A stretch of 64,000 bases of DNA from a virus, in the IMG/VR virus record IMGVR_UViG_3300030060_002972, positions 1-64,000 of that record; one strand, 5' to 3'. Position numbers and translations under genes: made by a program. Below, piece after piece: positions 1 through 64,000 of this stretch (position 1 is the first letter of the stretch; each line of letters opens with the position of its first letter). The notes beneath the pieces were generated by a model. It was not told the DNA's origin and made no database searches. It saw only the letters and a program-made list of their open reading frames with translations.

Positions 1-4
1 ATCT

Positions 5-211
5 ATGCAATATAGACAGCATTGTCTTAACAGACATTTTGTAGATTCACCCAATACTACTTCTGCAACAACATATAAGATACAAGGTAAAAATGCTTAT
101 ACAGCAGGTGGTGCAAATATAGTTTACGTTAATAGGTCTCATAATGATGGAGACAATTTGTATGCAGGATGCTGTCAAAGTGAATTAGTTTTAATGGAGG
201 TAGCTGGATAG
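5..211 (+). CDS. 5'-truncated tail-fibre/receptor-domain protein (LMEVAG-terminal module)
   Basis: Near-identical to C-terminal part of 42661..43179. Confidence 0.8.
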   Translation: MQYRQHCLNRHFVDSPNTTSATTYKIQGKNAYTAGGANIVYVNRSHNDGDNLYAGCCQSELVLMEVAG

Positions 212-660
212 TGAGTAAAGCAAGAGAATTAGGAACGTATACAGGAAAAATATTACAGACAGTGCAAATGGAAACTGACTCACTTACTTCATCTAATAGC
301 ACTACTTATGTAAATACTTCAGTAACACTTAATATAACACCATCAAGTACATCTAATAAAATTTTAGGTATAGCAACAACAGCTGTGGGTACTGACAGTG
401 ATATTGTAGCTTTAACAAGAGTTTATAATTCTACATCTACAACAGTTGTTTCAGACGTTAACCGTTATACACCACGAAGTAGTGCCCTTGTTGTAAATCA
501 CGGTTCACATACTTTTGTAGACTCACCATCATCTACAGATGCACAAACTTATGTTGTTCAAATTGCTTCTGATAGAAGTGCAGTAAGTTACTTTAACAGT
601 AGAGGTGGTGGAAGCATAGCATCACATTCATCAATAGTTCTAATGGAGGTAGCAGGGTAA
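211..660 (+). CDS. Stand-alone tail-fibre/receptor-type domain, present only in unit A
   Basis: GKILQTV...ITPSSTSNKI...DSPSST...LMEVAG, paralogous to 42661..43179 and to C-terminus of 41306..42364. Confidence 0.7.
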   Translation: MSKARELGTYTGKILQTVQMETDSLTSSNSTTYVNTSVTLNITPSSTSNKILGIATTAVGTDSDIVALTRVYNSTSTTVVSDVNRYTPRSSALVVNHGSHTFVDSPSSTDAQTYVVQIASDRSAVSYFNSRGGGSIASHSSIVLMEVAG

Positions 661-980
661 TGCCAGTAACAAGTATAGCGACAGGGACAGTAACCACAGA
701 TGGCACTGAACAGACCGTAGGTTCTGCACAAACAGGAGATTTCTTTTTCTCTGGTTACATAGATTTATCAAACAATGCAGCTGGAGATACAGTTGTAATA
801 AAAATAAAAGTAAGGGTAGATAGTAGTGATATTATATGTATACAAGATACATTTACTGGTGCACAAGCTGAACCATTATATTACTTTCCACCACTACCTA
901 GTACAGAAAATTTTGTAGTAACAATACAAAAAACAGGTGGAACAAATAGAGCATATAAATTTAGGATATTTACAGCGTAG
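660..980 (+). CDS. Small beta-rich virion protein
   Basis: Near-identical homologue at 43179..43499; tail module context. Confidence 0.65.
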   Translation: MPVTSIATGTVTTDGTEQTVGSAQTGDFFFSGYIDLSNNAAGDTVVIKIKVRVDSSDIICIQDTFTGAQAEPLYYFPPLPSTENFVVTIQKTGGTNRAYKFRIFTA

Positions 981-1607
981 ATGGCATTAGGTAGTTTTTC
1001 AGGATTTAGACTTTATCAAGCTTCAATAAGTGCAGCACCGCCTGTATTAGAAGTTGAGCCTGATTCTGTTACAACAACTAACGCTTTTGGTACACCAGTT
1101 GCTAAGTTACAAGTTAATGGTACAGGATTAGCAAGTGCAGTAGCATTTGGTACATCTGTTACTAAGTTAGAATTAACAGCTACTGGATTTGCTGATGCAG
1201 ATAACTTTGGTACAAGTGTTGCTAAGTTACAAGCTAGTAACACAGGTATATCTGATGCTGATGCATTTGGTACACCGACAAGTACATTACAAGTTAGTGC
1301 AACAGGATTAGCTAGTGGTCTAGCGTTTGGTACAAGCAGTCCTGAATTAGAGGCTAATGCTACAAGTGCTACAACAACAAATGCATTTGGAACACTAGGT
1401 GCTACATTAAATATAACACTTAGTGGGTTTGCAGAAACAGACGCTGTAGGTAATGCGTTAATAGTATTTAAGGATTGGGAAGTAGTAGTTGCACCTACAA
1501 GCACAGACATGTCATTAGTAGCAGCTGCAAGTAGTACAGACTTTAGTGAAGTAACTGCAGCAAGTAGTACAGATTTTACACAAGTGGAGAACGAAGGTAG
1601 TTTATGA
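981..1607 (+). CDS. Tail-associated protein with ~21-aa tandem repeats
   Basis: About six repeats of KL(Q/E)xxxTG(L/I/F)xxxxAFGT; homologue 43500..44129. Confidence 0.65.
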   Translation: MALGSFSGFRLYQASISAAPPVLEVEPDSVTTTNAFGTPVAKLQVNGTGLASAVAFGTSVTKLELTATGFADADNFGTSVAKLQASNTGISDADAFGTPTSTLQVSATGLASGLAFGTSSPELEANATSATTTNAFGTLGATLNITLSGFAETDAVGNALIVFKDWEVVVAPTSTDMSLVAAASSTDFSEVTAASSTDFTQVENEGSL

Positions 1608-3049
1608 GAAGGTTTATAAAAGATTTATCTGGTGGCTTAAATTTAGCTAGACCACCACACTTAATAGAAGATAACCAGTGTTCTGTTGCAACTGATTGTG
1701 TATACAGGTCAGGTAAATGGCAGAAACGTGATGGTTTTGCAAACTTAACTGCAACAACAGACACTGCAAAAGTATTAGAAATAACTGACCAGATAAGAAA
1801 TGATGGTACAGCTAGAAGATTTCATGCTACTACAAATAATATATATGAGTGGAATGGTAGTAGTTATACAGCTAGATTAGCTGCAAGTAGTAATAGATTA
1901 TCAACAGAAAAATTATTCTTTACAGAAATAAACAATGAGATATATGTAACAGATAGTAAGAACAATATAGCTAAATCTAGTACAGGAGCATTTAGTAATG
2001 TATCTTGGGACACAAGTAGTTCTGGTAGAAATGTAACAGCTGCTCATGTGATATTAGCATTTAATTCTAGATTATTATTATTTAATACAACAGATGGTAC
2101 AGATGGAGAAGTACCATTTAGAATGTTGTACACTGATGTTTTAGATTTTGACCGAGTGTCTAATTTAAATTTTCTAGATTTAGATTATTCTGGTAGCCCT
2201 ATTGTTACAGCAAAGAGACTAGGTCAAAACTTTATAGCAGTGTATAAATCAGACTCTATTGTAACATTACAAGACCAAGGTAGTCCATTATTTTTTGTAC
2301 CTAAAGCTAGACAGACTATAGGTATTATAGGACCTAAAGCTCTAACAGATATACCTAATGGGCAGGTGTTTGTAAGTAATGATGGTATTTACGTATTTAA
2401 CGGAGCTAATGTAGAACCTATAGCAGATAGAACTGTAGTAAGTGAACTATTTAATAATTTAAATTATACATACAAAGACAACATATATTGTTGGACAGAT
2501 TTAAAAAACAGAGAAGTAATAATCCATTACCCTACAGGTAGTAATGAAGAACCAGATAAATGTATTGTTTGGAACTATCAATCTAATGTTTGGAGTCAAT
2601 GGAATTTTAATGCATACGCAGGATTCTACAGATACAGAACTGTAGCCGTACCAGAAGTTTATTTTGGTTCTGCATCAGGAATAGTAAAACAGAGAGATAC
2701 ATCAGGAACAGATGGCAGCTCTGCTATAGCTAGTACACTGGCAACCAAAGCATTTCACAGTGTGTTTGGTGGCACAGTTTTAGGAGCATCAGCTGAGAAA
2801 GCTACAGATTACGTGCAGGTGTTAAGAGTACAAACTGATGCCACACCAGCAAGTACCTTGATATCTGTAGGAACTGCAGACTTAGGAACAGACAGTCCTA
2901 GTTATACAGACCAGACTATTACAGATACAGACGGTAAAGCACCAAGAGCAGACTTTAATAATTATGGTAGATACACAACAATCAAAGCTACAAACTTTAC
3001 AAGTTTGTCAGAGTTTGTAATAGACCTAGAATCTGGAGGAGATAGTTAG
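1604..3049 (+). CDS. Tail tubular/nozzle protein (P22 gp10 / T7 gp12-like position)
   Basis: GGLN N-terminus, beta-propeller-like composition, VWNYQSNVWS motif; homologue 44126..45571. Confidence 0.7.
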   Translation: MRRFIKDLSGGLNLARPPHLIEDNQCSVATDCVYRSGKWQKRDGFANLTATTDTAKVLEITDQIRNDGTARRFHATTNNIYEWNGSSYTARLAASSNRLSTEKLFFTEINNEIYVTDSKNNIAKSSTGAFSNVSWDTSSSGRNVTAAHVILAFNSRLLLFNTTDGTDGEVPFRMLYTDVLDFDRVSNLNFLDLDYSGSPIVTAKRLGQNFIAVYKSDSIVTLQDQGSPLFFVPKARQTIGIIGPKALTDIPNGQVFVSNDGIYVFNGANVEPIADRTVVSELFNNLNYTYKDNIYCWTDLKNREVIIHYPTGSNEEPDKCIVWNYQSNVWSQWNFNAYAGFYRYRTVAVPEVYFGSASGIVKQRDTSGTDGSSAIASTLATKAFHSVFGGTVLGASAEKATDYVQVLRVQTDATPASTLISVGTADLGTDSPSYTDQTITDTDGKAPRADFNNYGRYTTIKATNFTSLSEFVIDLESGGDS

Positions 3050-4305
3050 TGGCTATAAATCAGTACACGTTTGATGATATAGTTTTACCAGTGCCTCCTG
3101 TATTTGTACCTGGAGAAGTGTTTGACTATACTACTAACAAATTACCTAAGTATTTAAAATCACAATATACATCTATGCTAGATTTAATTTCTGCTATACA
3201 AAATGCATTTCTTGTAAGCAATGAACAAATATCTGGATTAGATGCAGATAAGATTACAAACAATACACAGTTTACGCAAAGTGTATTTGTAGGTGCAGAA
3301 AGTAAAATAAAACTAGATGGCACTAATAATCAAATAACTATTACAGACAATCAGGGCTCACCAGTTACAAGAGTTATACTTGGTAAATTAAGTTCTGCTT
3401 CAGATGATTATGGATTAAAAGTTATTGATGCTAGTGGTACTGTATCTTTTCAAACTGGGTCAACTACATTTATAGATGGAGGTATTATAACTGCAAACAC
3501 AGTTACAGCTACACAAATTGCAGCAGATACAATCACAGCAAGTCAAATAGCTGCAGATACTATAACAGCTAGTGAACTTGCAGCAAACTCTGTAACAGCT
3601 AGTGAAATAGATGTAGCTAATTTGTCAGCTATATCAGCTGACTTAGGAACTGTTACAGCAGGTACTATTACAGGTGGGACAATACAAACTGCATCTAGTG
3701 GTCAAAGATTAGTTGTAAGTAACACAGGATTACAAGCTATTAATAGTAGTGGCACTACAGTAGCTACTATTGGAAATGATGGACAATTTAGATTTGGTCC
3801 AAGTACTGGTGATAATGTTTCATGGAATAATACAACTTTATCTGTAACTGGAGATATAATAGCTACAGGCAATATACAAGATGGAGCTATTACAGTACCT
3901 ACTGTAACAACAGGTACATCTTCTGATGGTAGTAATATAAATTTAGTTGTATCTACTAAAGGTGGAAATGTTATAGGAACTATATCTGTTGTAGCTGTAG
4001 TAAGAGGTTTGACTTCAGTAGGCACAGGCATTGGTAATATGAGAGTGCAAATAGATGGAAACACATTTAAGAATAGTGTAGGTTCTAAGGCTACATCTGG
4101 TGGTGGTAGTGTAGTGGTAGGACAAAATACTGATGGACAAACATGCACTGGTACATTCTTAGACGGAGACCCAGCAGGTAGTATAAGTAGTGCAGCTGAT
4201 ACAACATACACTGTAGCAGTTGATATTACGGATGTGATAACTGATACCACGTTAAGTATAGTAAGTTATACAGCAACTTTAGTAACATTGGAGACATTTA
4301 AATGA
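3049..4305 (+). CDS. Tail fibre/needle-like protein
   Basis: Decapeptide repeats TITASQIAAD, LSAISADLGTVTAG motif; homologue 45571..46857. Confidence 0.7.
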   Translation: MAINQYTFDDIVLPVPPVFVPGEVFDYTTNKLPKYLKSQYTSMLDLISAIQNAFLVSNEQISGLDADKITNNTQFTQSVFVGAESKIKLDGTNNQITITDNQGSPVTRVILGKLSSASDDYGLKVIDASGTVSFQTGSTTFIDGGIITANTVTATQIAADTITASQIAADTITASELAANSVTASEIDVANLSAISADLGTVTAGTITGGTIQTASSGQRLVVSNTGLQAINSSGTTVATIGNDGQFRFGPSTGDNVSWNNTTLSVTGDIIATGNIQDGAITVPTVTTGTSSDGSNINLVVSTKGGNVIGTISVVAVVRGLTSVGTGIGNMRVQIDGNTFKNSVGSKATSGGGSVVVGQNTDGQTCTGTFLDGDPAGSISSAADTTYTVAVDITDVITDTTLSIVSYTATLVTLETFK

Positions 4306-4478
4306 GTAATTGTGAATGTAAAAGTAAAAAATTATTACAAGATAAATTAGAAGAAGCACAGAAAAACTTTGAACAGATGAAAGCTAGTATACAATTTATA
4401 TCTGGTCAAATAAAATTATTAGAAGAACTAATAGAATGTGCATGTAAGGAAGACGAATGCGAATGCAAAACTGGATAG
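4302..4478 (+). CDS. 58-aa Cys-capped coiled-coil protein (not in ORF track)
   Basis: ATGA overlap; MSNCECK...ECACKEDECECKTG; conserved homologue 46854..47024. Confidence 0.75.
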   Translation: MSNCECKSKKLLQDKLEEAQKNFEQMKASIQFISGQIKLLEELIECACKEDECECKTG

Positions 4479-4825
4479 ATGAATATACCAGAGAGGCGAA
4501 GCCCTGTGTTGATGTCAAAGAGTTTATTAGCACTAATGGGGTTACTCAAAATATATGGGTAGACAATATACCCATAGGTATTTTTGTATATACATTTTGT
4601 ATAGATACAATATCTATTCATATTATGTGGATAAAACCAAAGTATAGACACAAATTTAGACAAGCTGCTAAGTACATAGCAGAATGGTCTATAGAAGAAG
4701 GATACAGGGAAGTAGAACTAATAGTGGATACAAGAGCGTGTGCAATAGTAGAAAGATACTTAAAATTAAAACCTGTACAAAAAATTTATTTAAGCAAATT
4801 AGATAGAATATTGGAGGTTCTATAA
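4457..4825 (+). CDS. GNAT-fold protein preceding ejection genes
   Basis: IGIFVY...IHIMWIKPKYR...GYREVEL pattern; position as T7 gp13/P22 gp14. Confidence 0.55.
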   Translation: MRMQNWIDEYTREAKPCVDVKEFISTNGVTQNIWVDNIPIGIFVYTFCIDTISIHIMWIKPKYRHKFRQAAKYIAEWSIEEGYREVELIVDTRACAIVERYLKLKPVQKIYLSKLDRILEVL

Positions 4826-6066
4826 TGGGATTGAGTAAAAGTAAGTCTAAACAGAAAAGTGTTTCTGGACCATCTAGACAACAAACAACAGCAGCAAATA
4901 TTTTGCTAGAATCTATTGTTCCAGGAAGTGTAGGAACACGAGGATATAGTAGACAACAACCTGTTCAACAAATGCAAACACAAACAGGATTGCCTGTTGA
5001 AGGGTTTAGTACCCCAAGAGCAGGTGGTGGGGGAGGATATTTTTCTGGTGGTACATTTCAACCTGGTCAAACACCTGATGCTAATAAAGTAGGACAAGGT
5101 ACGCTTGAAGGATTTATGGCAACACAGAACTTAGCAGACCAAGGACCTTATACTTCTGTACTAGGAACTGGTAGAGAGTTTAGTGGGCAACCATTAGGTC
5201 CAGACCCAGTAACCAGAACATTGTTACCTAGTCTAGAAGAGATGAAATTTAAAGGTACATTTGACCAGCTTGATAAAGGTCAGCTGTCTCCAACAGCTGC
5301 AGGTGTAGTAGAAACTGGTGCTGCATTAGCTAGTGACCCACTTGGACAAGCTCAACAAGCAGCTGCTCAGATAGACCAAGCAGTAAACCAAGGTCAAGTA
5401 ACTACGTTACCTGAGTTACCAGAAATAACTGATTATATAAGTAAGGTGTACGAAGATATGCCTGGACCACTTAAAAATGTTATAGATGATTTCTTACAAG
5501 GTGGTACAACAGAAAAGATAGAAGAGAGTATACAGAAGAATGTAGCTGCAATTAAAACACAAGCAGAAGATATATTACAAAGTCAATTAGATATTACGTT
5601 TGGTAAGTTTGCATCTGCAGGAGCAACAGGTGGTGCAATGTTTGCAGCAGCAGGAGATGTGACTACACAAGTCATGGGTAATGTATCTGCAAGTATAGCA
5701 GGATTCTATGCACAAGCATTAACTCAAGCACAGCAACAACAACAGGTTGCATTACAAACACTAAGTACTGTAATAGGAACAGCAGGACAACAACAAGCTT
5801 TAGATGCACAAAGACAAGCTATAGAGTTAGACACAACTACAAAACTTATAACTGCAAAATACAATCTGTATGCAGGTATGACACAAGAATTTTTAAGACA
5901 AAATCAGTTTTACACTGATATAGTAAGACAAGAAACTAGTGCTGCTAATCAGCAAGAGTTTCAAGCATTAAGTATGTTTTACGAAATACTTACAAGTTTA
6001 GCAACAGGAGGACCAGGAGTAAGTGCAGGTGAGCAAAAAAGTTCATCATTTACTTTTGGAGCATAG
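4825..6066 (+). CDS. Internal virion/DNA-ejection protein 1
   Basis: Gln/Ala/Gly-rich helical protein, first of three large genes after the tail. Confidence 0.65.
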   Translation: MGLSKSKSKQKSVSGPSRQQTTAANILLESIVPGSVGTRGYSRQQPVQQMQTQTGLPVEGFSTPRAGGGGGYFSGGTFQPGQTPDANKVGQGTLEGFMATQNLADQGPYTSVLGTGREFSGQPLGPDPVTRTLLPSLEEMKFKGTFDQLDKGQLSPTAAGVVETGAALASDPLGQAQQAAAQIDQAVNQGQVTTLPELPEITDYISKVYEDMPGPLKNVIDDFLQGGTTEKIEESIQKNVAAIKTQAEDILQSQLDITFGKFASAGATGGAMFAAAGDVTTQVMGNVSASIAGFYAQALTQAQQQQQVALQTLSTVIGTAGQQQALDAQRQAIELDTTTKLITAKYNLYAGMTQEFLRQNQFYTDIVRQETSAANQQEFQALSMFYEILTSLATGGPGVSAGEQKSSSFTFGA

Positions 6067-6069
6067 AGC

Positions 6070-8418
6070 ATGGCACAACCAACAGATAGATTTAGATTAA
6101 GAAACTTTGGTAATAGAACCAATCAACAACAGACTACAGCACCGCAGTTTGAAGACACATCTGCAGACCAAGCAGAGCAAGGAGCTACTGTACTAGAAAA
6201 ATTTTTAGGTAAAGCTGGTGATATTGGTGGGGGTATTAAGCTAGAAAAACAAAGTCCTTTAAAAGCTTTTGGTAGCCAGTTAATGGGTAGAACTAAAATA
6301 GGTAGTGCTATAAATGCATACCAAGACCAAGTTAAAATAAACCAAGCAGCTGATATACAAGAAGGTCTAAGCACTGGAGGTCAATTTAAATATGAAAGAG
6401 CTAATAATCCTGTGTATACAGATGAAATGGGGAATGCTATTACAGACAAAGAAACTTTACAAAAATTAAATGCACAAACTGGTTTTTCAGATTCTGATAT
6501 GACTTTAACTGCAGCAGCAGCTAAAGGTAAAGGATTGGTTAAGCTAGTAGACAATGTAACAGGTGAAGTTTTAAATGAGAAAAAAGTTACTATTGACATG
6601 CCTACATCAGAGATAGGACCAGATGGTATGGCTGTAACAAAAAAGATAACACAAACTGTATATGTAAATCCAGATGCTTACTTGTCAGACCCTAGCGTAA
6701 GAAAAGAATTAATACTTAAAAAGACAGAAGAGAATATGAAAAACATAGGGCTTGACCAAGATGTAATAGACCGAACTATAAACAATTTACGTAACACAGT
6801 AAATAGTAAAGAGCTACAGATAGCTCAAGCAAACATGAAATTAAAAACACTTAAGTCTGATTTCTTTTTAGCAAATCTAGGCACATCACTAGGTGGAGGA
6901 ACAAAAGCTGGAACTAGCAGTAGTAGTCAAACAGACACTGTTATAGATACTTATAATAAATCTAAAAATGTAAAAGATGCTGCATTACCAGAAAAAATAT
7001 TTACTATAATTGGAAGCACTGGTGATAAGGTTAGTAATGATTCTGATTATGTTTTACCTTTAACAGCTGACAAAGCATTGCAAAATGCTGGTATAAAAGA
7101 TGCAGACACTGTTGCTAACCTTAAAGGATTTATAAATGTACAAACACAAGCAAAAGCAGGTGACCCTAAAGGTACATTAGGTATAGCTAGTTCAGCTAAC
7201 ATAGGTACAGCTATTGGAGTTTATCTAAAAAGTGACGGAGATAACATACAAGAAACTAATTTTGATGATGATAACTGGGCAGAGAGTAAAGATACTCATA
7301 AGAAAATGAAAATGGCAGTTGAGTTAGGAATAATAAATAACAACTATACAAACCTGCCTTATGCAGAAAGAATACAACTTATGAAAACTGCTGTAACTTT
7401 AATGGATGAAGCTGTGCTACCTCAACTTAGAGCATTTCAAGTAGGTTTTAGTGAAACAGACAGATTAAAATATATGAAAAGTTATGATGCTTTAAAAGGA
7501 CTAGCAGCAGAAAAAGTTAGATTAATGGGAGAAATAAAGAAGATATCTAAAATGAGTATGTTAACTGGTGAAGGAGCAAACATACAACAGAACGGAGAAA
7601 GACTAGAAGGTTCAGGTATATTTGTAAACAAAGAAGCTCCACAAACTCCTGTGTACTCAGTAGAAATGGATGAAGACGGATATGCTGAAACATTAACTTT
7701 TGATGTAATAGATGAAAGACTTATTAGTATGAGTAGAGAAGAGGCAGGTAGTTATTTAAGTAATTTAGTAGACAGAGAAATATTAAAACCAGAAGCTGCA
7801 CAATTCTTTGCTGACAAGTTAAATTACCAAAGAAGTAGAACAGCTGGTTTACAAAAAGATTTAGAAAAAATAAATTCTTTAGGTAGATTTGGGTCAGTGC
7901 AATCTGCAGCAAATGCAGAAGTACCAGGTCCAGGGCAAGATAGAACTGGCATACTTGGAATGGATTATGTGTCAGATGTAGCTGATTTAAAATTAAAAAA
8001 AGGTCAACTAGTATTTAATGAAGAGACAGGCAAATTTACTAGTACATCTTCAGGAAGCCAGACAGCAATTGGGTTTGGTTTAGGAGATGCTTCTGAAACT
8101 ATAGTAAGAGCAAATGCTGGGCAAAGATTAAATGTAGATTATGGAAAACTTAGAGACAAGGGATACAATGATGTTACTAAAGCAGAGTATATTGAAGTTA
8201 TTAAGAGAAAAGCAAACAGTGATGACCCAGAAGTCTTAAACAAAATGCAGACTAGACTAGGAGTAGATGACGGAGAGTTTGAAATTATTAAAACTTTCCT
8301 AAGACAAAACAACACAGAAGAATTAATGGAATTTTTAGATGAGGTACAATCCTCAGCTAAGGAAAGAAAAAGCGGAGAACCGGGTGCAGTAGAGGCATTA
8401 TCAGGATTCTTTGGATAA
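6070..8418 (+). CDS. Internal virion/DNA-ejection protein 2
   Basis: 782 aa helical protein; position. Confidence 0.55.
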   Translation: MAQPTDRFRLRNFGNRTNQQQTTAPQFEDTSADQAEQGATVLEKFLGKAGDIGGGIKLEKQSPLKAFGSQLMGRTKIGSAINAYQDQVKINQAADIQEGLSTGGQFKYERANNPVYTDEMGNAITDKETLQKLNAQTGFSDSDMTLTAAAAKGKGLVKLVDNVTGEVLNEKKVTIDMPTSEIGPDGMAVTKKITQTVYVNPDAYLSDPSVRKELILKKTEENMKNIGLDQDVIDRTINNLRNTVNSKELQIAQANMKLKTLKSDFFLANLGTSLGGGTKAGTSSSSQTDTVIDTYNKSKNVKDAALPEKIFTIIGSTGDKVSNDSDYVLPLTADKALQNAGIKDADTVANLKGFINVQTQAKAGDPKGTLGIASSANIGTAIGVYLKSDGDNIQETNFDDDNWAESKDTHKKMKMAVELGIINNNYTNLPYAERIQLMKTAVTLMDEAVLPQLRAFQVGFSETDRLKYMKSYDALKGLAAEKVRLMGEIKKISKMSMLTGEGANIQQNGERLEGSGIFVNKEAPQTPVYSVEMDEDGYAETLTFDVIDERLISMSREEAGSYLSNLVDREILKPEAAQFFADKLNYQRSRTAGLQKDLEKINSLGRFGSVQSAANAEVPGPGQDRTGILGMDYVSDVADLKLKKGQLVFNEETGKFTSTSSGSQTAIGFGLGDASETIVRANAGQRLNVDYGKLRDKGYNDVTKAEYIEVIKRKANSDDPEVLNKMQTRLGVDDGEFEIIKTFLRQNNTEELMEFLDEVQSSAKERKSGEPGAVEALSGFFG

Positions 8419-8427
8419 GGAGACACA

Positions 8428-15222: not shown

Positions 15223-15231
15223 GAGGTTAAC

Positions 15232-42657: not shown

Positions 42658-42660
42658 TAT

Positions 42661-46857: not shown

Positions 46858-47024
46858 ACAAGTGTGAATGTAAAAATAAAGAAATATTAGAAAAAAAATT
46901 AGAAGACTTAGAGATTCGTTATGAACAATCTAAGGCTGCAAGTGCATACTTACAAGGGCAAGTTATGTTAATAAAAGAATTGTTAGAATGTGTTTGTGAG
47001 GAGGATTGTAATTGCAAAAAGTAA
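46854..47024 (+). CDS. 56-aa Cys-capped coiled-coil protein (unit B, not in ORF track)
   Basis: MNKCECK...ECVCEEDCNCKK. Confidence 0.75.
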   Translation: MNKCECKNKEILEKKLEDLEIRYEQSKAASAYLQGQVMLIKELLECVCEEDCNCKK

Positions 47025-47431: not shown

Positions 47432-48709
47432 ATGGCTAGTAGAAGTAAATCAAGAAGTAAACAAGAATCTGTACAAGGACCAAGTACAACGCAAACTATA
47501 GCAGCTAATGCAATATTAGAATCATTAATGCCAGGTAGTACACAAGCAGGCACAGGATATGTGCAACAACCTGTTCAACAAATGCAAACACAAACAGGTT
47601 TACCTTACGAAGGTCCTGGAGGAACACCACAGGGACAAGCAGTGGGTTCTAGAGCAACAGATGCTAGTAAAGAAGGTTATGGAGTAAAACAAGGACGAGA
47701 TATCATGTCACAATTTTTAAGTACAGTTCCCGCATATTCATCATCATTACCTGGAGACAGTAATCGTATGGTAACACAAAGTCCTACAGGTTTAGAAGCT
47801 GGGCAAGAAGCGTTAAAATTATTACCTGATTTTGATGACGCTGCTTATGTAGATTTTTTTGAAAAATACGATTCAGGTACATTGTCAGAGTCTTCTAATC
47901 AAGTTGTAACAAATATTCTGGATATTGTAAATAATCCAGTGGCTGCAAGCCAAGAACAAATGGCAGAGATATACAGAGTATCTAATATGGAAGAAGCACT
48001 AAGTGTGCCAGAACCCCCAGTGTTAACAGAAGTTGTTGGACAGATTGTAGAAAATTTACCAACACCAATGACTAATTTTATGAATAACATTTTTATTGCA
48101 GGAACCCAAGAGGCAATGGAAGCAGAGATAGAAAACTTAAGTCAAAAATTACTTGATTTTGGTAATGAAACCGCAAGTGATTTTATGGATGCTACATTAG
48201 GTAGAGTTGCTGCACAAACTGGTGGTGCAATGTCTGGAGCAGCTTTAGCGGCTATACAAGAGGGCGTAGTAGATATTGCCAAAGGTGTTAATACACAAAT
48301 AGCCCAAGCAAGATTAAGTGCTATGGGTACTTTACTGCAAGCTAGAGAACAAGGTATAAGTTTAATTACACAGCTATTAGATGACGGTCAACAACAACAA
48401 GCTATGGAGTTAAGTAGAGGTATTAAAGATGTAGAGTTAGCTTTGGCTACACAACAAAGTAAATTAAATGCCCATACACAAATGCAGATGCAAATGAATC
48501 AATCACTACAAAATATACTACCAATTATTGTAGATGAAGAAAGACAAGTAGAAGCAAACAAAGAAAGAACACAACAATTTATTTATAACTTAATGGCACA
48601 ACTAGCTACAGCTGGTCCATCGTCTAGTTACAGTTATGGTAAATCAAGGTCATCATCATTTAGTCTAGGTGGTCAAGTAGGAATTACTTACGCTATGGGT
48701 CCAAAATAA
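47432..48709 (+). CDS. Ejection protein 1 (unit B)
   Basis: Shares SKQ.SV.GPS..T.AAN, QQPVQQMQTQTGLP and LAT.GP with 4825..6066. Confidence 0.65.
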   Translation: MASRSKSRSKQESVQGPSTTQTIAANAILESLMPGSTQAGTGYVQQPVQQMQTQTGLPYEGPGGTPQGQAVGSRATDASKEGYGVKQGRDIMSQFLSTVPAYSSSLPGDSNRMVTQSPTGLEAGQEALKLLPDFDDAAYVDFFEKYDSGTLSESSNQVVTNILDIVNNPVAASQEQMAEIYRVSNMEEALSVPEPPVLTEVVGQIVENLPTPMTNFMNNIFIAGTQEAMEAEIENLSQKLLDFGNETASDFMDATLGRVAAQTGGAMSGAALAAIQEGVVDIAKGVNTQIAQARLSAMGTLLQAREQGISLITQLLDDGQQQQAMELSRGIKDVELALATQQSKLNAHTQMQMQMNQSLQNILPIIVDEERQVEANKERTQQFIYNLMAQLATAGPSSSYSYGKSRSSSFSLGGQVGITYAMGPK

Positions 48710-48724
48710 AATTAGGAGAATAAT

Positions 48725-50935: not shown

Positions 50936-50942
50936 GTGTTAC

Positions 50943-53900: not shown

Positions 53901-56900
53901 GGTACAAAACAAGATAAAATAAAAGGTGCATATGAATTAACTAGACGAATTTTAACTGATGAACAATTAATGATGGATGTTATAAATAAAAATACACAAA
54001 CACAAACATTATTTTTGTTAATGAAATCTATAGATAATCCTAAATTAAAACCTGTAGTAAAACAAATTTTGCAAGCAAACAAAACACAAACATCTGTAGT
54101 AGATTTATTACATAACATGGCTAAACAAGAAAACGCTACTAACAAACCAAGCGTATCACTTACTAGCACTGGAGATACACGATTAGTTAATGAAGAATTA
54201 CAAGACGCTACCGGTGGTGAAAGCGGTGTTATAAAACGTGTTTACAATTATTTCTTTAAGGAATATCAACAAATAATGAGAGACAGTGGTTTTGAACCAG
54301 GTGTAGCTATACAAAAATTAGCATCTAATGCAGAACAATCATACACAAGAGAAGCTAGTAAAGGCGGATTAATAGAAACTACAGTATTAGAAGTAAAACA
54401 AAAATTAAAAAATACACTAGATGAAGTAAATAGTGGGTTAGCACCAGGCGCTGATAAATATACCAAAGATGATATTGATAATATTTTGGTTCAATTAGAT
54501 AGATTAGCTAGTGGAGATAATGGTAAAGCAGCTGCAACTAAAATATTTAATGCGTTGCCAGGACCTGTACAAAGATATGTAGGTGAATATCATTCTACAT
54601 TACGTAAAGCCTTGGAACGTTTTAATAGCAAAGTAGATGACATAAATCTTATGGTAGAAAAAGGTGAAGTGTTTCCTGATACAGGTATAAATGTACCTTG
54701 GAAAGACCTTAGTCTAGAACGAGTTGACCCGTTAGATTTTTATTTTCCTAGATTTAGTAACGTAGAAAAAATGAACATAGAAAGATTTGATGTTTTTGCT
54801 ACAATTAAATATGCAGACGGACACACTCAACGTGTACGTGTAGTTAATGAAGCTGTAGATACCTTAGAAGATGTGCATAGAAAAATTATTGACCATGCAG
54901 ATGTAGGTTTACCACCAGGAGCCGTATCATTAAATTACAATGTATCACCTACACAACCATTGTTACGAAGTATTGACCAATACAATCCTACATCACAAGC
55001 ACAGCAAGTTGTAGACGACATTGAAAATTTATTTCAAGTTGATTACAAAACCGTTAAGTCTGCATTAGACAAAGGCGGTTATAATTATCAAACTTTTTAT
55101 AACGATGCGTTTATTGCTGGTCCAACATTTGCAAAACAAAGAACAGGTTTTGCTGCTAATTATGACACTGACCATTTAACAGTATTAAATACATATTTAA
55201 TGAAAGAATCTAGATATAGAAATTTTATTGAACCTGTAATAAAACATGACGCATTAAAAAGATACATGAAAGATACTCCGTTAGTAGATAAAAATGGCAA
55301 CACTATGACAGGCACTATGGATTACGTTAGTCACATAGTAGATAACATGTTAGGTAGACCACAACCAGCTACAGTTATGTTTAACAAATTACTACAAGGC
55401 ATTATTAAAGGTGGCAAGTTATACAAAATACCTGGCATATCTAAGGATGCTGATGTTAGAAGTTTCATAGATGCTAACTCTACATTTAACTATTATCTAC
55501 AGTTTGCAGTAGACATACCAGCATCGTTAATACAAAGCACCATGGCAGTTACTTCTGTGTTACCGGCAGCGGGTAGGTATGCTTTTAGTATGCAACCTAT
55601 GAAAGATGCTACAAATTTATTGTTAAGGTCATTAGTAAAAAATGACAGAGTTGCAAAAAATCCTATATTAAAACGTGTGCATAAAAGTTTCAAAAATAAA
55701 TTAGATAAATTAGACACACAAACTAAACAAAAATATGATGACTTAGAACAAGTATTTGTAGACATGAATCTTGAAATAGATAGTGCTCATGCTGTGCATA
55801 TGGCAGACCAATATACAGCACAATTTGGTGTTGAAGCTAGTAATTTCTTAAAACGTAGCTATCACACAATAGGTAATGCTGTGACATATGCATTTAGAAA
55901 AGGTGATATTATCCCTAGACGTTTAGCTGCTACTTTAGCCTATGAAAATGCCGATGCAGCTTTCAATAATGTTGCTAAAAAATTAAATAAAGCTGAAGTA
56001 GATTGGTTAGCTGGACCATTAAACACAGAAAAAGTTAGAAGTTTATTAAGACAAAAAGGTTTAACATTGAATCCATTGGAAGAAGAAACTATGAAACTTA
56101 TGGTTAATTCTTCTAACCGTCAATACACTAATACTGGGCGTACTTATGCAACTAAGACACAAGGTGCGTTTTACACTAAAGAAAAAGTAGGGATGCAATG
56201 GAAATACAAAGCTAACAGAAACTTTAAGAAAGATTTAGCTAAAAATTTTAGTGAAGAAACTAACCACAAATACAACTCAGCTAACAACACTGGATTTATG
56301 AATGAAGGATTGTTAAAAAACTTTAACTTGTACAAAAAATTTGCAGTAAAAGAATTTAGTAGGTTAGTGGGTTATGGTAAAAAAGGACAATACCCGGCAC
56401 TAGCTGCTAGTCTGTTAGCGTATCAACAGATTGCAGGAAGTGTAGGATTACCTTTTGCAAGAGACTTAAAACAATTATTAGAATGGGCATACTACGGGTC
56501 AGAAGTAATAGCTAAACCAAAAACAGAAGCTAATCCAGCTTTATTAGATATGGAATCTAACTTAAGAGCCTATGCAGCAGACAGCCCACTAAGAAAATAT
56601 GCGTTGTTTGGTCTTGCATCTACAGCGGGTATTGATTTAACACAAAGTGCATCTGTTAATATGGAAGGTTACTTTAGTCCAAGAACACCTATAAATGGAT
56701 TTGGTGATGTTGTAGGTAATTTAGTGTTAGGAGATACTTATAGACGTATGAAATCTATGTTTAATCGTATAGCTAACTTAAAATCACAAGGCAACTTATA
56801 CGAACTAGGCGGAGAAACTGGATTACAAAAATACATTAGAGGTTTTGAGGCTGCGGCACCTTTTATTCCAATGGGTGAACAAGCAGTAGACGCCTTACAA

Positions 56901-57395
56901 GTAATCAACGGTATGCAACCTAGAGATTATAGTGGACGACTTATGGATGTGTATGGTAGACAGGATGAGTTAAGCCAAGGTAACGAAGCTATACTAAAAT
57001 TATTAGGATTTAATACTATGGATGAGGTATTATATAAACAAACATCTTCATTAATTAGTGGAAAAACTGGTAAAGAGTTAAGAGAAATAGACAAAATAAA
57101 ACGAAGACATTTTGTTAATGATGCTTTTGGATTAATTACAGATTACATAAATGCAACTAACGAAGGTGAAGTTGATGCAGAAGAAGTTGATGACATTATA
57201 GAAGAATTGTCTGAGATTGTCACTTATTTTGGTGGGGATAAACAACTGTTAAATGCTATGAATTATGCATTTGTGACAAACAATGTGCCTAGAGATATAT
57301 TAAAATTAAAACGAGGCACAGCTAAACAGAAACAATTAATTATAAACAACTTAGATATTTTATTACGCCAAACTAACAAAGGAGGACAAGACTAA
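50943..57395 (+). CDS. Large ejection protein 3 (unit B), 2150 aa
   Basis: C-terminal motifs shared with 8428..15222. Confidence 0.65.
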   Translation: MGIKKQLTIDKLKNYKKVPIGGQDTITAPQVDLQSITQNTFNKLNTQKQEEELNTDLNLEINAPTIVKPDTYISDNELNASSLFSLENLVGRENSDYINNAIDEFLPNFHIDPGEIIYGRKNSYENPTAAQAFYNGLMPGRDRDIADFAERVEFARANGINPLDTYIDSFMWGLGEALQFYGYWRMSGAFAKNLLIPALTRIGILSKSKRIAELGEGTEKVVNRLPKVLQQDAKKFLTDNKYRQQLIGTIGVESSIVTAVEDDIVDGILYTVGYPAAFKYGFIPGFKGFIDVAGKGLTKVVDKGKNLVIKSQTEDDIPKPLNKITSLIQKVLDGTQKDGIENLGTNTQKVIKELENISVEGQKNLGDLIKTSAALQNDVQKLLKVFNTKVVGIINNIGNTTATKNIKALLDSPDLKNGDFETLIKFTKLIANESKHGHKQNRKKFFVSVLDEADDMLSKFGNSDVATIVAPGKIPLTKDNSRILYSKIKTKLQDLVGHTKGQAADVDSTLRQALGFNTSQSPDAIFKNLLHKLQGKFANKVNKNSQTDLGTLLNLAKENPKGITKLIDNISALNDYKKFISNETFDNQSRNWKKLVYHIKNVQAVTGMTGVKRKINKILDTKRDYNKLFDVAGRKTSEVKIQKGKKGKTETVTIIEQEDRFGYKQDIARKQRLRQELGIPITRSVSLRQLLNRSQKGFTREEYDTALTLLRKEIEEAGLLPQDLSKELGRQLTRRNRIKRSAFNTRVRNDLASDEALDEIAQRFVDDIQIKAEMAKYGIDPSIVNRSSLDKLTKRKKRLRELHTDLNNQLFKSNTKIQTHINKIGSIVNKISNGKETLAMLNPFKNIQEINQGIKFVSRYQQGQSLEVGDGLANATKMFAAMEKNISNTIKSGAQNSNNLNKEFFRFMNDYLNEKNLNTPELRDVQEVIASVLTSGRTTAEIKTKARTGLYKTLVAHVYDDLPGIGHILQVRGKKEDAQFIKKLISGTKQDKIKGAYELTRRILTDEQLMMDVINKNTQTQTLFLLMKSIDNPKLKPVVKQILQANKTQTSVVDLLHNMAKQENATNKPSVSLTSTGDTRLVNEELQDATGGESGVIKRVYNYFFKEYQQIMRDSGFEPGVAIQKLASNAEQSYTREASKGGLIETTVLEVKQKLKNTLDEVNSGLAPGADKYTKDDIDNILVQLDRLASGDNGKAAATKIFNALPGPVQRYVGEYHSTLRKALERFNSKVDDINLMVEKGEVFPDTGINVPWKDLSLERVDPLDFYFPRFSNVEKMNIERFDVFATIKYADGHTQRVRVVNEAVDTLEDVHRKIIDHADVGLPPGAVSLNYNVSPTQPLLRSIDQYNPTSQAQQVVDDIENLFQVDYKTVKSALDKGGYNYQTFYNDAFIAGPTFAKQRTGFAANYDTDHLTVLNTYLMKESRYRNFIEPVIKHDALKRYMKDTPLVDKNGNTMTGTMDYVSHIVDNMLGRPQPATVMFNKLLQGIIKGGKLYKIPGISKDADVRSFIDANSTFNYYLQFAVDIPASLIQSTMAVTSVLPAAGRYAFSMQPMKDATNLLLRSLVKNDRVAKNPILKRVHKSFKNKLDKLDTQTKQKYDDLEQVFVDMNLEIDSAHAVHMADQYTAQFGVEASNFLKRSYHTIGNAVTYAFRKGDIIPRRLAATLAYENADAAFNNVAKKLNKAEVDWLAGPLNTEKVRSLLRQKGLTLNPLEEETMKLMVNSSNRQYTNTGRTYATKTQGAFYTKEKVGMQWKYKANRNFKKDLAKNFSEETNHKYNSANNTGFMNEGLLKNFNLYKKFAVKEFSRLVGYGKKGQYPALAASLLAYQQIAGSVGLPFARDLKQLLEWAYYGSEVIAKPKTEANPALLDMESNLRAYAADSPLRKYALFGLASTAGIDLTQSASVNMEGYFSPRTPINGFGDVVGNLVLGDTYRRMKSMFNRIANLKSQGNLYELGGETGLQKYIRGFEAAAPFIPMGEQAVDALQVINGMQPRDYSGRLMDVYGRQDELSQGNEAILKLLGFNTMDEVLYKQTSSLISGKTGKELREIDKIKRRHFVNDAFGLITDYINATNEGEVDAEEVDDIIEELSEIVTYFGGDKQLLNAMNYAFVTNNVPRDILKLKRGTAKQKQLIINNLDILLRQTNKGGQD

Positions 57396-57589: not shown

Positions 57590-57591
57590 TT

Positions 57592-58239
57592 ATGCGTGTA
57601 CATATTTTAATATTATTAACATTATTGTTATTTGGATTAGTAGGTTGGGTCAAAGTATTTGCTACCGACAACAGCACATCTAACCAAACTAATACGTCTG
57701 GTTCAAACACCAGTATTAGTGGTGGGTACACATCTACTACTAACAATACGTACAGTGGTGGGCAAACCAACACGACCACTAACAGTACAACTAATAGTAC
57801 AAAAAATAGTAAAATACCTGTAGGCACCGCTACTGCACCTAGTATGTCATCGTACAGTCAAGATTTATGTATTGTAGGCGTATCTGGTGGAGTGCAAGTC
57901 ACCGGATTTGGGGTATCAGGTGGCACATATGTTACTGACGAGAATTGTGAACGAATGAAACTATCAAAACTTCTATATGATTTTAATATGCGAGTTGCAT
58001 CAATCGCAATTCTCTGTCAGGACGATAGAGTATTTTCTGCTATGGAACACGCAGGCACACCTTGCCCGTTTGAAGGTAAGATAGGAAAAGATGCAGAAGA
58101 CCAATGGAAAAAATATGACGTAGAAAGACCTGACTACGACAAATATGTACAAAAATTAAAACGAAGAGCGGCTATAGACAAAGAAACAGAATTTGTACCT
58201 ATAGACACGGAGTATGATTTATATGGAGACGATGATTAA
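57592..58239 (+). CDS. Exported Ser/Thr-rich Cys protein (unit B)
   Basis: Homologue of 15829..16458. Confidence 0.7.
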   Translation: MRVHILILLTLLLFGLVGWVKVFATDNSTSNQTNTSGSNTSISGGYTSTTNNTYSGGQTNTTTNSTTNSTKNSKIPVGTATAPSMSSYSQDLCIVGVSGGVQVTGFGVSGGTYVTDENCERMKLSKLLYDFNMRVASIAILCQDDRVFSAMEHAGTPCPFEGKIGKDAEDQWKKYDVERPDYDKYVQKLKRRAAIDKETEFVPIDTEYDLYGDDD

Positions 58240-59605
58240 ATGTGGTTACTTATTGTTAATTGCATTCTTGATAGCGTGGGCAGCAACCGCAGAAGAGATA
58301 ACGACTGGAAACCTTTTGCCAAATGGTTCTGGAAACGCAAGTAACTACCAATCTGTAGATAATACTATACCTAACGTAACAACTAATGGTTTTAATGTGG
58401 TTGGTAATGTTAGAGATTGGGGACAAGAATTAGAAACAACAGGTACAGGTAGTATTAATTACACTGGTAATTTAACTGACCATGCTACACAGCAACAATT
58501 AGACAATGGTATTAGATTAGATTCTACTACTATAGTACAAAACTGTGAGTGGGTAGGGTCTAATTGGCAGTGCGGACAAGCTAGAGCAGGTCAAGACACA
58601 TATACTACTACCGTAAAAATATTAGATGATGAAGGTAATACATTAGCCATAGTAAATCAAACTAGAAATAATGACTCTGGGTATGGTGCAAACGCATACA
58701 AGTATGAAGATTCTGTTACATATACAGGTGCGGGCAGTAATCAATTTTACTGGGAATGGGAAGGTGTAGACGAAGGCAGTTATGTAAACTTAGGTGGACC
58801 TAATTTGCTTGGTGCAAAACTTACAATGACCTATGATGACACTGTAATACCGGAAGAAACTATAGAAGAAATATATGAAGTTATAGAAGAATTTGAGGAA
58901 TGGCAAGAGACATTTGTACCAGTAGAATTTATAGAAGAGTTTATTCCGTTACCTGTTTTAATAGAAAAATTTCCTATGTCAGTGTTAGAAGAAGAAATAG
59001 TTTTTGAAGAACTTAATGCTATTGAAGAAGAGTTTGAAGAAGTAGAAATACTACAAGTATTTGGTGGACCTGAAATAGTAGAGGAACCAGAAGAAGAAGT
59101 TGTAGAAGAACCAACACCTACACAAGCTGCAATAGAACCTACACAAGAAGAAACTGAAACGGAAAGTGAACCACAAGAAGTAAATAATGAACCAGCGTTA
59201 GTAGTAGCTGAAGAACCAGAACAGGGTACAGTACCCGAAAAAACACCTAGTGTAAGTGTAGATAATATACAAGCAGAAGTAAGTGTGACAGTTAAAGAAG
59301 TAGATAAACAATTAGCTGTAGTTAACGTAGTAGCGGCTAAGATGATAGAAGATAAACAAGTAGATATTTCTAGTTATTACAAACAATACACAGATAACCG
59401 TGAGATTTATGATAGTCGTATCTATGAAGATTTGCGTATATTAGATAATTATGATATACAAATATATAACAATAATAATAAATTTGTAGCTATATCTGTT
59501 AATGACCCTGTATTAAAATATCAAGTACAATTTCAGAAAGCTAGAAGTATACGTATACAAAAAGAAAAAGAATTAGAATATTTAAGGAGACAATATGCTA
59601 GATAA
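58214..59605 (+). CDS. Exported acidic protein (unit B)
   Basis: Homologue of 16442..17815. Confidence 0.7.
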   Translation: MIYMETMIKCGYLLLIAFLIAWAATAEEITTGNLLPNGSGNASNYQSVDNTIPNVTTNGFNVVGNVRDWGQELETTGTGSINYTGNLTDHATQQQLDNGIRLDSTTIVQNCEWVGSNWQCGQARAGQDTYTTTVKILDDEGNTLAIVNQTRNNDSGYGANAYKYEDSVTYTGAGSNQFYWEWEGVDEGSYVNLGGPNLLGAKLTMTYDDTVIPEETIEEIYEVIEEFEEWQETFVPVEFIEEFIPLPVLIEKFPMSVLEEEIVFEELNAIEEEFEEVEILQVFGGPEIVEEPEEEVVEEPTPTQAAIEPTQEETETESEPQEVNNEPALVVAEEPEQGTVPEKTPSVSVDNIQAEVSVTVKEVDKQLAVVNVVAAKMIEDKQVDISSYYKQYTDNREIYDSRIYEDLRILDNYDIQIYNNNNKFVAISVNDPVLKYQVQFQKARSIRIQKEKELEYLRRQYAR

Positions 59606-59831
59606 ATTACAAAAATATGCAATGATAGTTGGTGTGGTATCTGCTATTGGTGGCGGTTTCTACGCATGGGGTGAGTTTAATACTAGATTAGATGCAGTAT
59701 CTCAAGCAATAGGCAGTGACAATGTAGAAAAACTACAACAACAAGTTAATTTGTTAGATAAAAAATTGGAAGTCTTAGAAGCTAAACTAGATGAGTTTAG
59801 GTCTGGACTAAATAATCCATTGGGGAAATAG
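59595..59831 (+). CDS. TM plus coiled-coil protein (unit B)
   Basis: Homologue of 17805..18038. Confidence 0.7.
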   Translation: MLDKLQKYAMIVGVVSAIGGGFYAWGEFNTRLDAVSQAIGSDNVEKLQQQVNLLDKKLEVLEAKLDEFRSGLNNPLGK

Positions 59832-59833
59832 AT

Positions 59834-61132
59834 ATGGTAACACCTAAAATACGTATGATAAAAACAAAAGACGGTTATTACGCAGTTAGCCCTGTACGTT
59901 GGGATAGTGAACTACAAAAAAATCGTTTTATTACAGACGATGAGTGTGCTGCAGAGGCATTAGAATCTGCTAGTGCACATGTAATAGAATATTTTACTAA
60001 TGAAAAAGATGCAACAGCGTACACAAAAGCACAAATTGTTCCATATAATAAAAATATAGCAGGAACAGCCTATAAACAAATTGCAGGTTTTGATAAAAAA
60101 GACCAGCAAAGTATAGAGGACCATTTGTCTGGACGTTTAGCTCCAATCAGAATTACAAACAAATCAGATTTTAACAGATACAAAAAATTTATACCTGCAA
60201 CAGTACAAAACGCATTAATTAAAAGTAATTTTACTATGCCATTTTCTATTGCTAACCCGTATGACACCGGTAGTTTGGATGCAAACCACGGTAAATTAAA
60301 TAGAGAACAGGAATTACACAACGCTAATTCACGTTATTTTCCAGGTTATATTCCAGACTATAATTTTAGGGGTGCAGGTAATTTAGATATGGACACTATG
60401 GAATACACCGAAAGAGCAAATGTAGGTAGGACTTTTAGTTATGGTGATGATATGTTACAACTGTTTAGACATTCACATGGGTTAACTTATAAAGGTAAAT
60501 ACGATGCAACAAAACCTGGGTTTACCTGGAGAAATGCTTTTGCAGTATCAACTGATACAGATACGTACTTAAAAAAAGCTAATGGATTTATTAAACAAAT
60601 GCCTAAATTTTTGAACATGACCGGCAGTACGTTTACAGAAAATTGGAAACCTTACGGCAATGACAAAAGAACACCAGAAACTATGCAAGAATTATTGTAT
60701 ACACTTTTAGGAATAGGTCTTATGGAATCTGGATATAATGAAATGAATGAAGAAGAACAGCAACTAGCTTTGGCTGACTTAAAAACTCGTTACTCAATAC
60801 TACATCCAATGATGCAAAACTTTGATATGGTTCTTAGAAACCACGGATACCAACATGGGTACGTAGATTACTTAGCTGCGGATGACGACAAAAAAGATGC
60901 ATTTCGTAAAAGACTAACGGAGAAGTTGCGTACACCAGAGTATGAAATATCTCGTAACAATGGTGAGGCAATGAGAAAATTTATGATAAAACTTACAGAG
61001 ATACCTACAGAACAAAATGACAGAATACAAAAACAAATACAAAAAGACGGTACTATTAACACAGATAATTTATTAAGAACTAAACCAACAGAGGCTGATA
61101 TTACACTAACTAACCCGCCTCTAGGAGACTAA
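59834..61132 (+). CDS. 432-aa hypothetical protein, unit B only
   Basis: Long ORF inserted between two genes that are adjacent in unit A. Confidence 0.75.
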   Translation: MVTPKIRMIKTKDGYYAVSPVRWDSELQKNRFITDDECAAEALESASAHVIEYFTNEKDATAYTKAQIVPYNKNIAGTAYKQIAGFDKKDQQSIEDHLSGRLAPIRITNKSDFNRYKKFIPATVQNALIKSNFTMPFSIANPYDTGSLDANHGKLNREQELHNANSRYFPGYIPDYNFRGAGNLDMDTMEYTERANVGRTFSYGDDMLQLFRHSHGLTYKGKYDATKPGFTWRNAFAVSTDTDTYLKKANGFIKQMPKFLNMTGSTFTENWKPYGNDKRTPETMQELLYTLLGIGLMESGYNEMNEEEQQLALADLKTRYSILHPMMQNFDMVLRNHGYQHGYVDYLAADDDKKDAFRKRLTEKLRTPEYEISRNNGEAMRKFMIKLTEIPTEQNDRIQKQIQKDGTINTDNLLRTKPTEADITLTNPPLGD

Positions 61133-61384: not shown

Positions 61385-61418
61385 ACCGCATGCAACTGAA
61401 CGCCATAGTTACAAGGGG

Positions 61419-62460: not shown

Positions 62461-62818
62461 AAGTTGGAATTGTTAAATGCAACTCAATCCAGTCATCAAA
62501 AGCAGGTGTCATAATAAAGTTTTTTTGTGCATCTAGAGTAGCATGATATAACATCATTCCTTTTTCTTTCATGGCTCTGTAAGCATCACGTTTCATTTGT
62601 GGTTTACTAATGTAACCTTTTTTACATTGCACACCAAACCAAAAACGTTCGCCTGTATCCATGTTATATACACCACACATAATATCTGCCATACCTTTAC
62701 TACCTCTAGATTCCATAATGTGATACTTAATGCGTTTTAAGGGAGCAAGCTGATTATTCAAATACTCAACAGTACGTTTTTCAAATCTATAACCAGCTTG
62801 ATATCTTTTGTTAACCAT
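62438..62818 (-). CDS. Hjc-type Holliday junction resolvase (unit B)
   Basis: GYRFE..ESRGSKGMADI..GVQCK. Confidence 0.75.
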   Translation of the reverse strand: MVNKRYQAGYRFEKRTVEYLNNQLAPLKRIKYHIMESRGSKGMADIMCGVYNMDTGERFWFGVQCKKGYISKPQMKRDAYRAMKEKGMMLYHATLDAQKNFIMTPAFDDWIELHLTIPTYAEGTSE

Positions 62819-63642
62819 TAATAGTTACCATCCCTATCACACACAGGTTTGTGAGGGCAAGATGCACAGATGTATTTAGGAACATCGGTTGGTAAAGCGG
62901 GTACTTGTTTACTCTGTGAGGAGTTTCGCAAGGTGTCCACCAGATGGTGAATGTATGGCTGCCAATGTTCGTAATTTTCTATTACCCTGCCCATTTTGCT
63001 GTATTTTGTATCTACAGGAATGATACAATGTTTCATATCCATAGAGCTACGTCTTGTATATAACAAGATAGCATAGGGTACGTTGTACCCAAGTTGCTTA
63101 GCTATGTATACCCACAACAATAATTGTTTTAGGTGATACTTCCAATATGTAAAATCTTTCCACTTGTAAATTTCTGTAGATTTTAATTCTAACGGTATTA
63201 AATATTTGTTACCGTCCTTGTCTTCAAATTCTTTAACAAAGTCTGTAGTAGCTGCAAATCCTATAGGTTTATCAGCATCCATTTCCACATGAATAGGAAA
63301 TTGATTCTGTTCCGCACTATCTAACCCATGGATTTTTCCAGGCATTTTGTCTATGATTCTTCCCATGGTTTGTTCGTTAACAAATCCCATAAACATTCTA
63401 CGTCTAGCCAATGGGTCAGATACCGGTGTTCTTTCCACATCAGATAGATAAGAATAATATGCTTGGCGTATGCATGTACCAAGACTTGAAGAACGTACTA
63501 AATGTTTCCTACCTTCGCCTCGTGCTTTCCATTCTTCAAATCTTAATGCAAACTCTTCGTCTAGTACAGACTCTGTTGAGTCGTGTAAAGCCTCCAGAAA
63601 CAACTCTGGGTCTGTCATTAGTTGTTTAACTGTGTAGCTCAT
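62818..63642 (-). CDS. Cas4-like exonuclease (unit B)
   Basis: SSLGTCIRQ, ELKS, CASCPHKPVC. Confidence 0.85.
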   Translation of the reverse strand: MSYTVKQLMTDPELFLEALHDSTESVLDEEFALRFEEWKARGEGRKHLVRSSSLGTCIRQAYYSYLSDVERTPVSDPLARRRMFMGFVNEQTMGRIIDKMPGKIHGLDSAEQNQFPIHVEMDADKPIGFAATTDFVKEFEDKDGNKYLIPLELKSTEIYKWKDFTYWKYHLKQLLLWVYIAKQLGYNVPYAILLYTRRSSMDMKHCIIPVDTKYSKMGRVIENYEHWQPYIHHLVDTLRNSSQSKQVPALPTDVPKYICASCPHKPVCDRDGNY

Positions 63643-63651
63643 ACAAATCTC

Positions 63652-63924
63652 CTATCCTCTTGGCTCAGCTGGTTCTCCGTCTGTTTCTTCAGCACGTAAA
63701 CTAAATGCTAAATCAGGCGGATTGTTACCATCTCTGTATTTATTCCAAAATGCTAGAACTTTGTATTTTCTACCACCAACTGTAAGAACACATGAGTATC
63801 CCCAGTCTTTTTTCCAACCACCACCAATGTTAACTAGACTTTTCTTTTCACCATTGGTATTAGCTGGAGCACTGGATTCACTACGTCCTCCTACTCTTCC
63901 GGCTCTTGGTTCACCGTATGCCAT
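63652..63924 (-). CDS. Putative small SSB (unit B)
   Basis: Start MAYGEP after AGGAGG; IGGGW..KVLAFW..PPD. Confidence 0.5.
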   Translation of the reverse strand: MAYGEPRAGRVGGRSESSAPANTNGEKKSLVNIGGGWKKDWGYSCVLTVGGRKYKVLAFWNKYRDGNNPPDLAFSLRAEETDGEPAEPRG

Positions 63925-63934
63925 AAATGACCTC

Positions 63935-64000
63935 CTATTCCCAGTTGACGCCATGTTCTTTGACATCCAAAGGGAGCTGTAAATTTATGCCTTTACCCAA
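63935..64000 (-). CDS. polA: C-terminal fragment of unit B PolA
   Basis: LGKGINLQLPLDVKEHGVNWE* aligns with unit A YNYGIELDLPLDIKNTGNNWN*. Confidence 0.8.
   Translation of the reverse strand: MGKGINLQLPLDVKEHGVNWE

Follow-up and report, generated by a model that had tools for sequence, protein, structure and literature searches.

The IMG/VR virus record IMGVR_UViG_3300030060_002972 raises the question whether its sequence represents one large phage genome, two phage genomes linked in one molecule, or two genomes that became linked only during assembly. The record is a single 83,747-bp contig classed as linear, and the window, by which we mean the whole stretch of DNA analysed here, comprises its first 64 kb (positions 1 to 64,000). 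A preliminary description based on the letters of the window had proposed two different phage genomes of ~43 kb joined head-to-tail. Self-BLAST, run on the window and on the whole contig, and protein synteny bear out this proposal with units of ~41-43 kb and extend it to the contig end: two different but related marine phage genomes of that size lie head to tail in one contig. As to the join itself, we consider it very probable that it is an artefact of metagenome assembly and not biology.

In the self-comparison of the whole contig base 5 aligns to position 42,973 and the final base, 83,747, to position 42,759, resulting in two collinear units. Unit A (1-42,759, plus strand) carries a complete phage gene set and has a period of 42,968 bp to the start of unit B; unit B (42,760-83,747, plus strand; 42,760-64,000 in the window) measures 40,988 bp. 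The total length equals two laps of the ~41-43 kb gene order minus about 209-213 nucleotides (nt). Each unit possesses one intact set of TerL, portal, N4-gp56-type capsid protein, tail proteins and tail fibres, and also three large internal proteins, a Cas4-like nuclease, PolA, a primase and a DnaB-like helicase. The preliminary description had advised looking beyond the window for a second TerL and capsid gene, and both are present there, at 75,081-76,601 and 78,861-79,805, respectively.

Exact tracts shared at the join and at the contig ends

A list of maximal exact matches between A and B contains only five tracts of at least 55 nt. The longest, S1, comprises 90 nt (5-94 and 42,973-43,062, plus strand); it is followed by a tract of 83 nt at 793-875 and 43,312-43,394, one of 59 nt at 897 and 43,416, and one of 84 nt at 38,426 and 79,521. 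The 90- and 83-nt tracts had already been reported from the window and are real. The fifth tract, S5, comprises 56 nt (42,704-42,759 and 83,692-83,747, plus strand) and reaches the final base of the contig, the base directly before it being a mismatch. A terminal redundancy, already dismissed in the preliminary description, and a concatemer of one and the same genome were rejected, since the repeated parts are not identical and the longest exact tract spans 90 nt.

Between S5 and S1 lies a stretch of 213 nt (42,760-42,972, plus strand) that occurs in single copy, and a second copy of it is what the contig lacks for two full laps. At the contig start S1 is preceded by a stub of four nucleotides, ATCT (1-4, plus strand), vs TGCA at 42,969-42,972. 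Translated, the stub would give Ser in place of the Ala of the junction copy, and many related strains carry a '..SMQYR' form of the protein of 172 amino acids (aa) encoded here; judged by these sequences, ATCT looks like the stub of a third variant and not like a marker of the end of A. The earlier conclusion that the join has to be sought upstream of about 42,970 is not warranted. The exact switch point probably falls within the shared interval, and the change from A to B can be anywhere in 42,704-43,062.

Contig start, internal join and contig end are thus all located inside one 359-nt interval of a tail-fibre gene (56 + 213 + 90 nt). According to the tract list only ~97 of ~41,000 positions (0.24%) are able to end the contig on at least 56 matched bases, making it unlikely that the end coincides with an exact tract by chance. 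We infer that the assembler used k = 55, the terminal match of 56 nt then being k+1. An end match of exactly k+1 is the mark of a path in a de Bruijn graph that stops at a branching vertex.

The gene that spans the junction (42,661-43,179, plus strand) is in frame and encodes a hybrid protein of 172 aa, assigned to phrog_6942 (tail fibre), which combines an A-type N-terminus (MGRRRE) with a B-type C-terminus. In an exact look-up in a collection of 15 billion proteins this hybrid was found on one contig, the present one, and the proteins flanking it on either side on 2-13 contigs each. We also built from the contig coordinates the proteins that would result if each unit were closed on itself (A-on-A and B-on-B) and compared them with public proteins. 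The B-on-B closure protein is identical to P0009 over 172 of 172 positions, and P0009 occurs on three ENA contigs, the longest of which has 41,115 bp, i.e. 40,988 + 127. The A-on-A closure protein matches P0011 equally well (172/172), the longest contig with P0011 being 6,466 bp. P0039, which is identical in 105 of 106 positions to the product of the next conserved gene downstream in A, likewise has a longest contig of 6,466 bp, suggesting that P0011 and P0039 are on the same contig.

Among the 15 listed of 22 cluster members the A-type N-terminus is found in the hybrid and P0011 only, and the B-type C-terminus in the hybrid and P0009 only. The predicted reciprocal hybrid, with a B-type N-terminus and an A-type C-terminus, has its best match among the same listed proteins at 165 of 172 positions; the present contig stops before the reciprocal junction. 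At the protein level each unit thus appears to exist closed on itself in independent assemblies. Separate circularisation of the units had been named in advance as an observation that would speak against a real join, and P0009 and P0011 appear to provide evidence of that kind at the level of contigs. As both predicted closure proteins contain the exact translation of the 213-nt stretch, A and B may share ~359 identical nt at the tail-fibre gene (the 56-nt, 213-nt and 90-nt segments together). Both laps were opened inside this junction gene and not at a genome end.

The arrangement at the junction was also found in relatives, many marine ones having been collected by TerL and capsid searches of IMG/VR (48 loci). 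S5, the 213-nt stretch and S1 occur together and in normal gene order in a single-unit IMG/VR contig and in a Tara Oceans scaffold, the latter being the only find of a metagenome scan with the core of S1, and in both contigs sequence resembling the start of A comes after them. Because the three segments sit inside single-unit relatives, the order seen at the 'junction' is the normal order of the circularly closed map. The Tara scaffold is neither A nor B and resembles a further relative, IMGVR_UViG_3300030099_001444 (G003).

Origin of the join

The observations can be accounted for if phages A (~42,968 bp) and B (~40,988 bp) were present in one sample and their short reads were assembled in a de Bruijn graph. 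Both would assemble as circles, being either circularly permuted or equipped with terminal repeats that collapsed, and exact sequence common to their tail-fibre genes would make the two circles touch in the graph as a figure of eight. The path of the assembler would then lead through one lap of A, the shared node and one lap of B and would stop on return to the shared node. The contig has the features of a concatenated contig both in its size, which is near a whole multiple of the genome of its clade (83,747 bp vs 40.6-42.5 kb), and in the coincidence of its ends and its internal join with exact common tracts of about k length.

Contigs with concatenated genomes are documented in IMG/VR and are regarded as assembly artefacts (CheckV paper, PMC8116208). 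The present contig resembles them in having ~2x the expected length, with whole copies in the same order and orientation, and in coming from a metagenome assembly; in contrast, those contigs repeat the same genome and have a k-mer frequency above 1, whereas here different phages of at most ~80% identity are combined. Concatemers of two or more smaller phage genomes were also met in the manual curation of candidates for 'huge phages' (PMC10747093). In these, too, the assembler linked distinct small phage genomes through common sequence; the joins were attributed to terminal repeats, whereas here the common sequence is located inside a tail-fibre gene and the genomes are collinear relatives.

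Overrunning is not confined to this record. G003 (45,582 bp, rated 100% complete) is a mixed contig of 1.13 laps with a true unit of ~40.25 kb: its first 5.3 kb are an 82% copy of its last part, it contains two diverged capsid genes (98% and 84% identical to that of A), and its start coincides exactly with a 79-nt tract common to its two copies. In two other relatives, G001 and G002, the contig's own ends overlap over 136 and 298 nt, respectively, and differ at two positions in each case. Given the 1.13 laps of G003 and the self-overlapping ends of G001 and G002, these assemblies habitually continue after a full lap into a variant that co-occurs, and the present contig is the extreme case.

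Several points limit the case for an assembly artefact. The k-mer frequency of the contig is 1.011 (k = 20) and thus not clearly above 1, as would be expected of a concatenated genome; this value is near 1 because the A and B copies differ, the test detecting repeats of the same genome and not mixed ones. CheckV lists the record as 74% complete and not as over-long, i.e. an artefact is not flagged. The 41,115-bp contig would be unit B at full length, as judged from one exact protein and the match in length. Finally, neither the graph nor the contig would look different if a real cointegrate of A and B had formed by one crossover in the common tract.

Such a molecule would arise if A and B co-infected one cell and a single crossover in the common tail-fibre tract produced a cointegrate or mixed concatemer, an event to which we assign a slim chance. 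It would explain why the junction lies in exact common sequence with the reading frame kept, and the topology of the contig is that of a single crossover between two circles; moreover, tail-fibre modules whose boundaries are conserved offer a natural place for recombination, and the module occurs four times. A real molecule would, however, not need contig ends that are placed on common tracts as well, and the hybrid protein is on no other contig whereas both parental forms are. Going by general phage biology, a capsid that fits 41-43 kb would not take up 84 kb, so that a molecule of this length would be a rare intracellular intermediate and not the dominant assembled form. If true, a hetero-dimer of phages ~80% identical would be a snapshot of an intermediate of module exchange between marine phage lineages.

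Two related units in direct orientation are also the layout of a tandem lysogen, in which two related prophages reside at one attachment site, but this origin is highly improbable. The contig measures no more than two units and has no host DNA on either side. Its junction keeps the reading frame of a tail-fibre gene and is placed within that gene, where the contig itself opens, not at an attachment site. No integrase had been seen in the window, and indeed no match to a tyrosine or serine recombinase (PF00589, PF00239) was found, which counts against tandem prophages, as does a scan of 185,579 reference prokaryote genomes with one tail protein, which yielded no relative.

Divergence of the two units and their relatives

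The match between the units is patchy, as had been described for the window, with DNA identities of 65-92% down to unalignable sequence, and it runs past the window through PolA, primase, TerL, portal, capsid and tail fibres. The first BLAST blocks pair 5-218 with 42,973-43,188 (91.7%) and 635-4,354 with 43,154-46,906 (80.2%); further blocks link 15,879-18,029 to 57,660-59,819 (75.4%) and 19,413-19,532 to 62,597-62,716, and the last one links 42,284-42,759 to 83,272-83,747 (83.8%). Protein synteny gave the same picture, from 92% identity to no significant match. The tail proteins (660-4,305 in A) are 68-92% identical, including a 106-aa protein of the tail region with 92% and a 481-aa virion protein (1,604-3,049 in the window) with 89%. 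For the cluster of the latter (P0096) a homologue of at least 90% identity is encoded on a 130,933-bp NCBI/ENA contig of ~three unit lengths, which may likewise consist of several laps or else carry an integrated copy.

In A, TerL (33,985-35,529), portal (35,526-37,238) and capsid (37,766-38,710) precede a tail fibre (41,306-42,364); identity to B amounts to 79% for TerL and 86% for the capsid. The replication genes of A are located on the minus strand and comprise the Cas4-like nuclease (19,642-20,457), PolA (20,823-22,997; 63,935-65,998 in B), the primase (23,214-23,978) and the helicase (25,444-26,511), the identity between A and B being 49% for the nuclease and 45% for PolA. The names of the Cas4-like nuclease, PolA, primase, helicase, TerL, portal and capsid were confirmed by PHROGs. 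Cas4 and PolA had been named correctly from the window, whereas 'SSB', 'resolvase' and 'membrane' were not confirmed, the respective open reading frames giving no hits.

The three large ejection-type proteins are swapped between the units (4,825-15,222 in A vs 47,432-57,395 in B), the flanking genes being 70-90% identical. The first of them shows 29% identity between A and B, and comparison of the other two pairs (782/736 aa and 2,264/2,150 aa) gave nothing significant. In agreement with the preliminary description both units have private genes, e.g. at 26.5-31.1 kb in A and at 59,834-61,132 in B.

A module of ~150 aa is found four times in the tail-fibre genes, at 5-211, 211-660, 41,306-42,364 (C-terminus) and 42,661-43,179, with conserved ends and variable middles. 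The copy at 211-660 (plus strand) is an extra tandem paralogue of A, 34% identical to the 172-aa junction protein, that does not occur at the matching place in B; an insert at this place is also found in G002, G003 and the Tara scaffold. N- and C-terminal types are mixed among the public variants of the 172-aa protein, and comparison of these sequences suggests cassette exchange.

Each core gene has two copies, and their order is common to both units, as it would be in a genuine phage genome of double size that arose by duplication of the whole genome and subsequent divergence. We hold this origin to be as improbable as that of a tandem lysogen: no essential gene is broken in either copy, the units differ to a degree between 92% identity and unalignable sequence and have modules replaced outright, and all relatives are single units. 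Of the readings left open in the preliminary description, the assembly chimera formed at identical tail tracts is favoured, and the evidence speaks against tandem prophages and a stable double genome.

Counting of short palindromes in each unit revealed a further difference. CCGG occurs once in A and 29 times in B, GCGC 0 and 17 times, and GGTACC 0 and 8 times, giving a combined count of 1 vs 54 for the three words, whereas AGTACT (12 in A vs 0 in B) and TTTAAA (39 vs 12) are distributed the other way round. GATC is found 0 and 1 times in the two units vs ~100 expected, and GGCC and CGCG are lacking in both. The B-type words span 45,913-81,700, with only one in A, indicating that each unit is internally coherent. 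By inference the restriction pressure on A was not the same as that on B during their evolution, the simplest case being that of different host strains. Such a split in word composition is difficult to square with a single replicon of long standing. Differing restriction-site avoidance cannot evolve separately on one replicon, which counts against genome duplication, and the different host strains that it suggests count against co-infection of one cell by A and B. The units also differ in guanine-cytosine content (36.0% in A vs 34.4% in B). Unit B contains 12 copies of the inverted repeat GGGTAC-N1-3-GTACCC, e.g. at 48,952, 59,224 and 63,076 and further at 65,568-82,211, and unit A contains none.

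The single-unit relatives in IMG/VR comprise contigs of 42,459, 40,868 and 40,583 bp, which CheckV rates as 100%, 96% and 99% complete, and there are fragments of 22.7 kb (54%) and 5.5 kb (13%); from these estimates a genome length of ~42 kb is expected, and none of the other relatives among the 48 loci is longer than 45.6 kb. Fragments from three IMG samples match unit A at 96-98% identity, and the 22.7-kb contig matches unit B at ~90%. In gene order and size both units are like the uncultured marine phages of ~41-43 kb with an N4-gp56-family capsid and PolA that are known from IMG/VR and Tara Oceans. When the TerL-capsid block was compared at the DNA level with GenBank phages, one trivial hit and no close cultured relative came up, and the best match to the capsid among GenBank phages has 30% identity and comes from Vibrio phages of ~50 kb. 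Exact-pattern scans of IMG/VR with the first 40 nt of the contig, a B-specific 42-mer before S5 and an A-specific 43-mer after S1 had no match.

One record, two phages

The two genomes are real; their linkage most likely does not exist as a molecule. In the public catalogue the record is listed as one 84-kb 'genome', which would inflate statistics on genome size and gene content and create a false hybrid tail-fibre protein. The 45.6-kb record of G003 shows the same fault on a smaller scale. Mixed concatenation of this kind escapes the usual k-mer test, the two copies being different phages. Split in two, the record yields complete, collinear sister phages in which ejection modules and tail-fibre cassettes are swapped and restriction-site avoidance differs, suggesting that they are tuned to hosts with different restriction systems.

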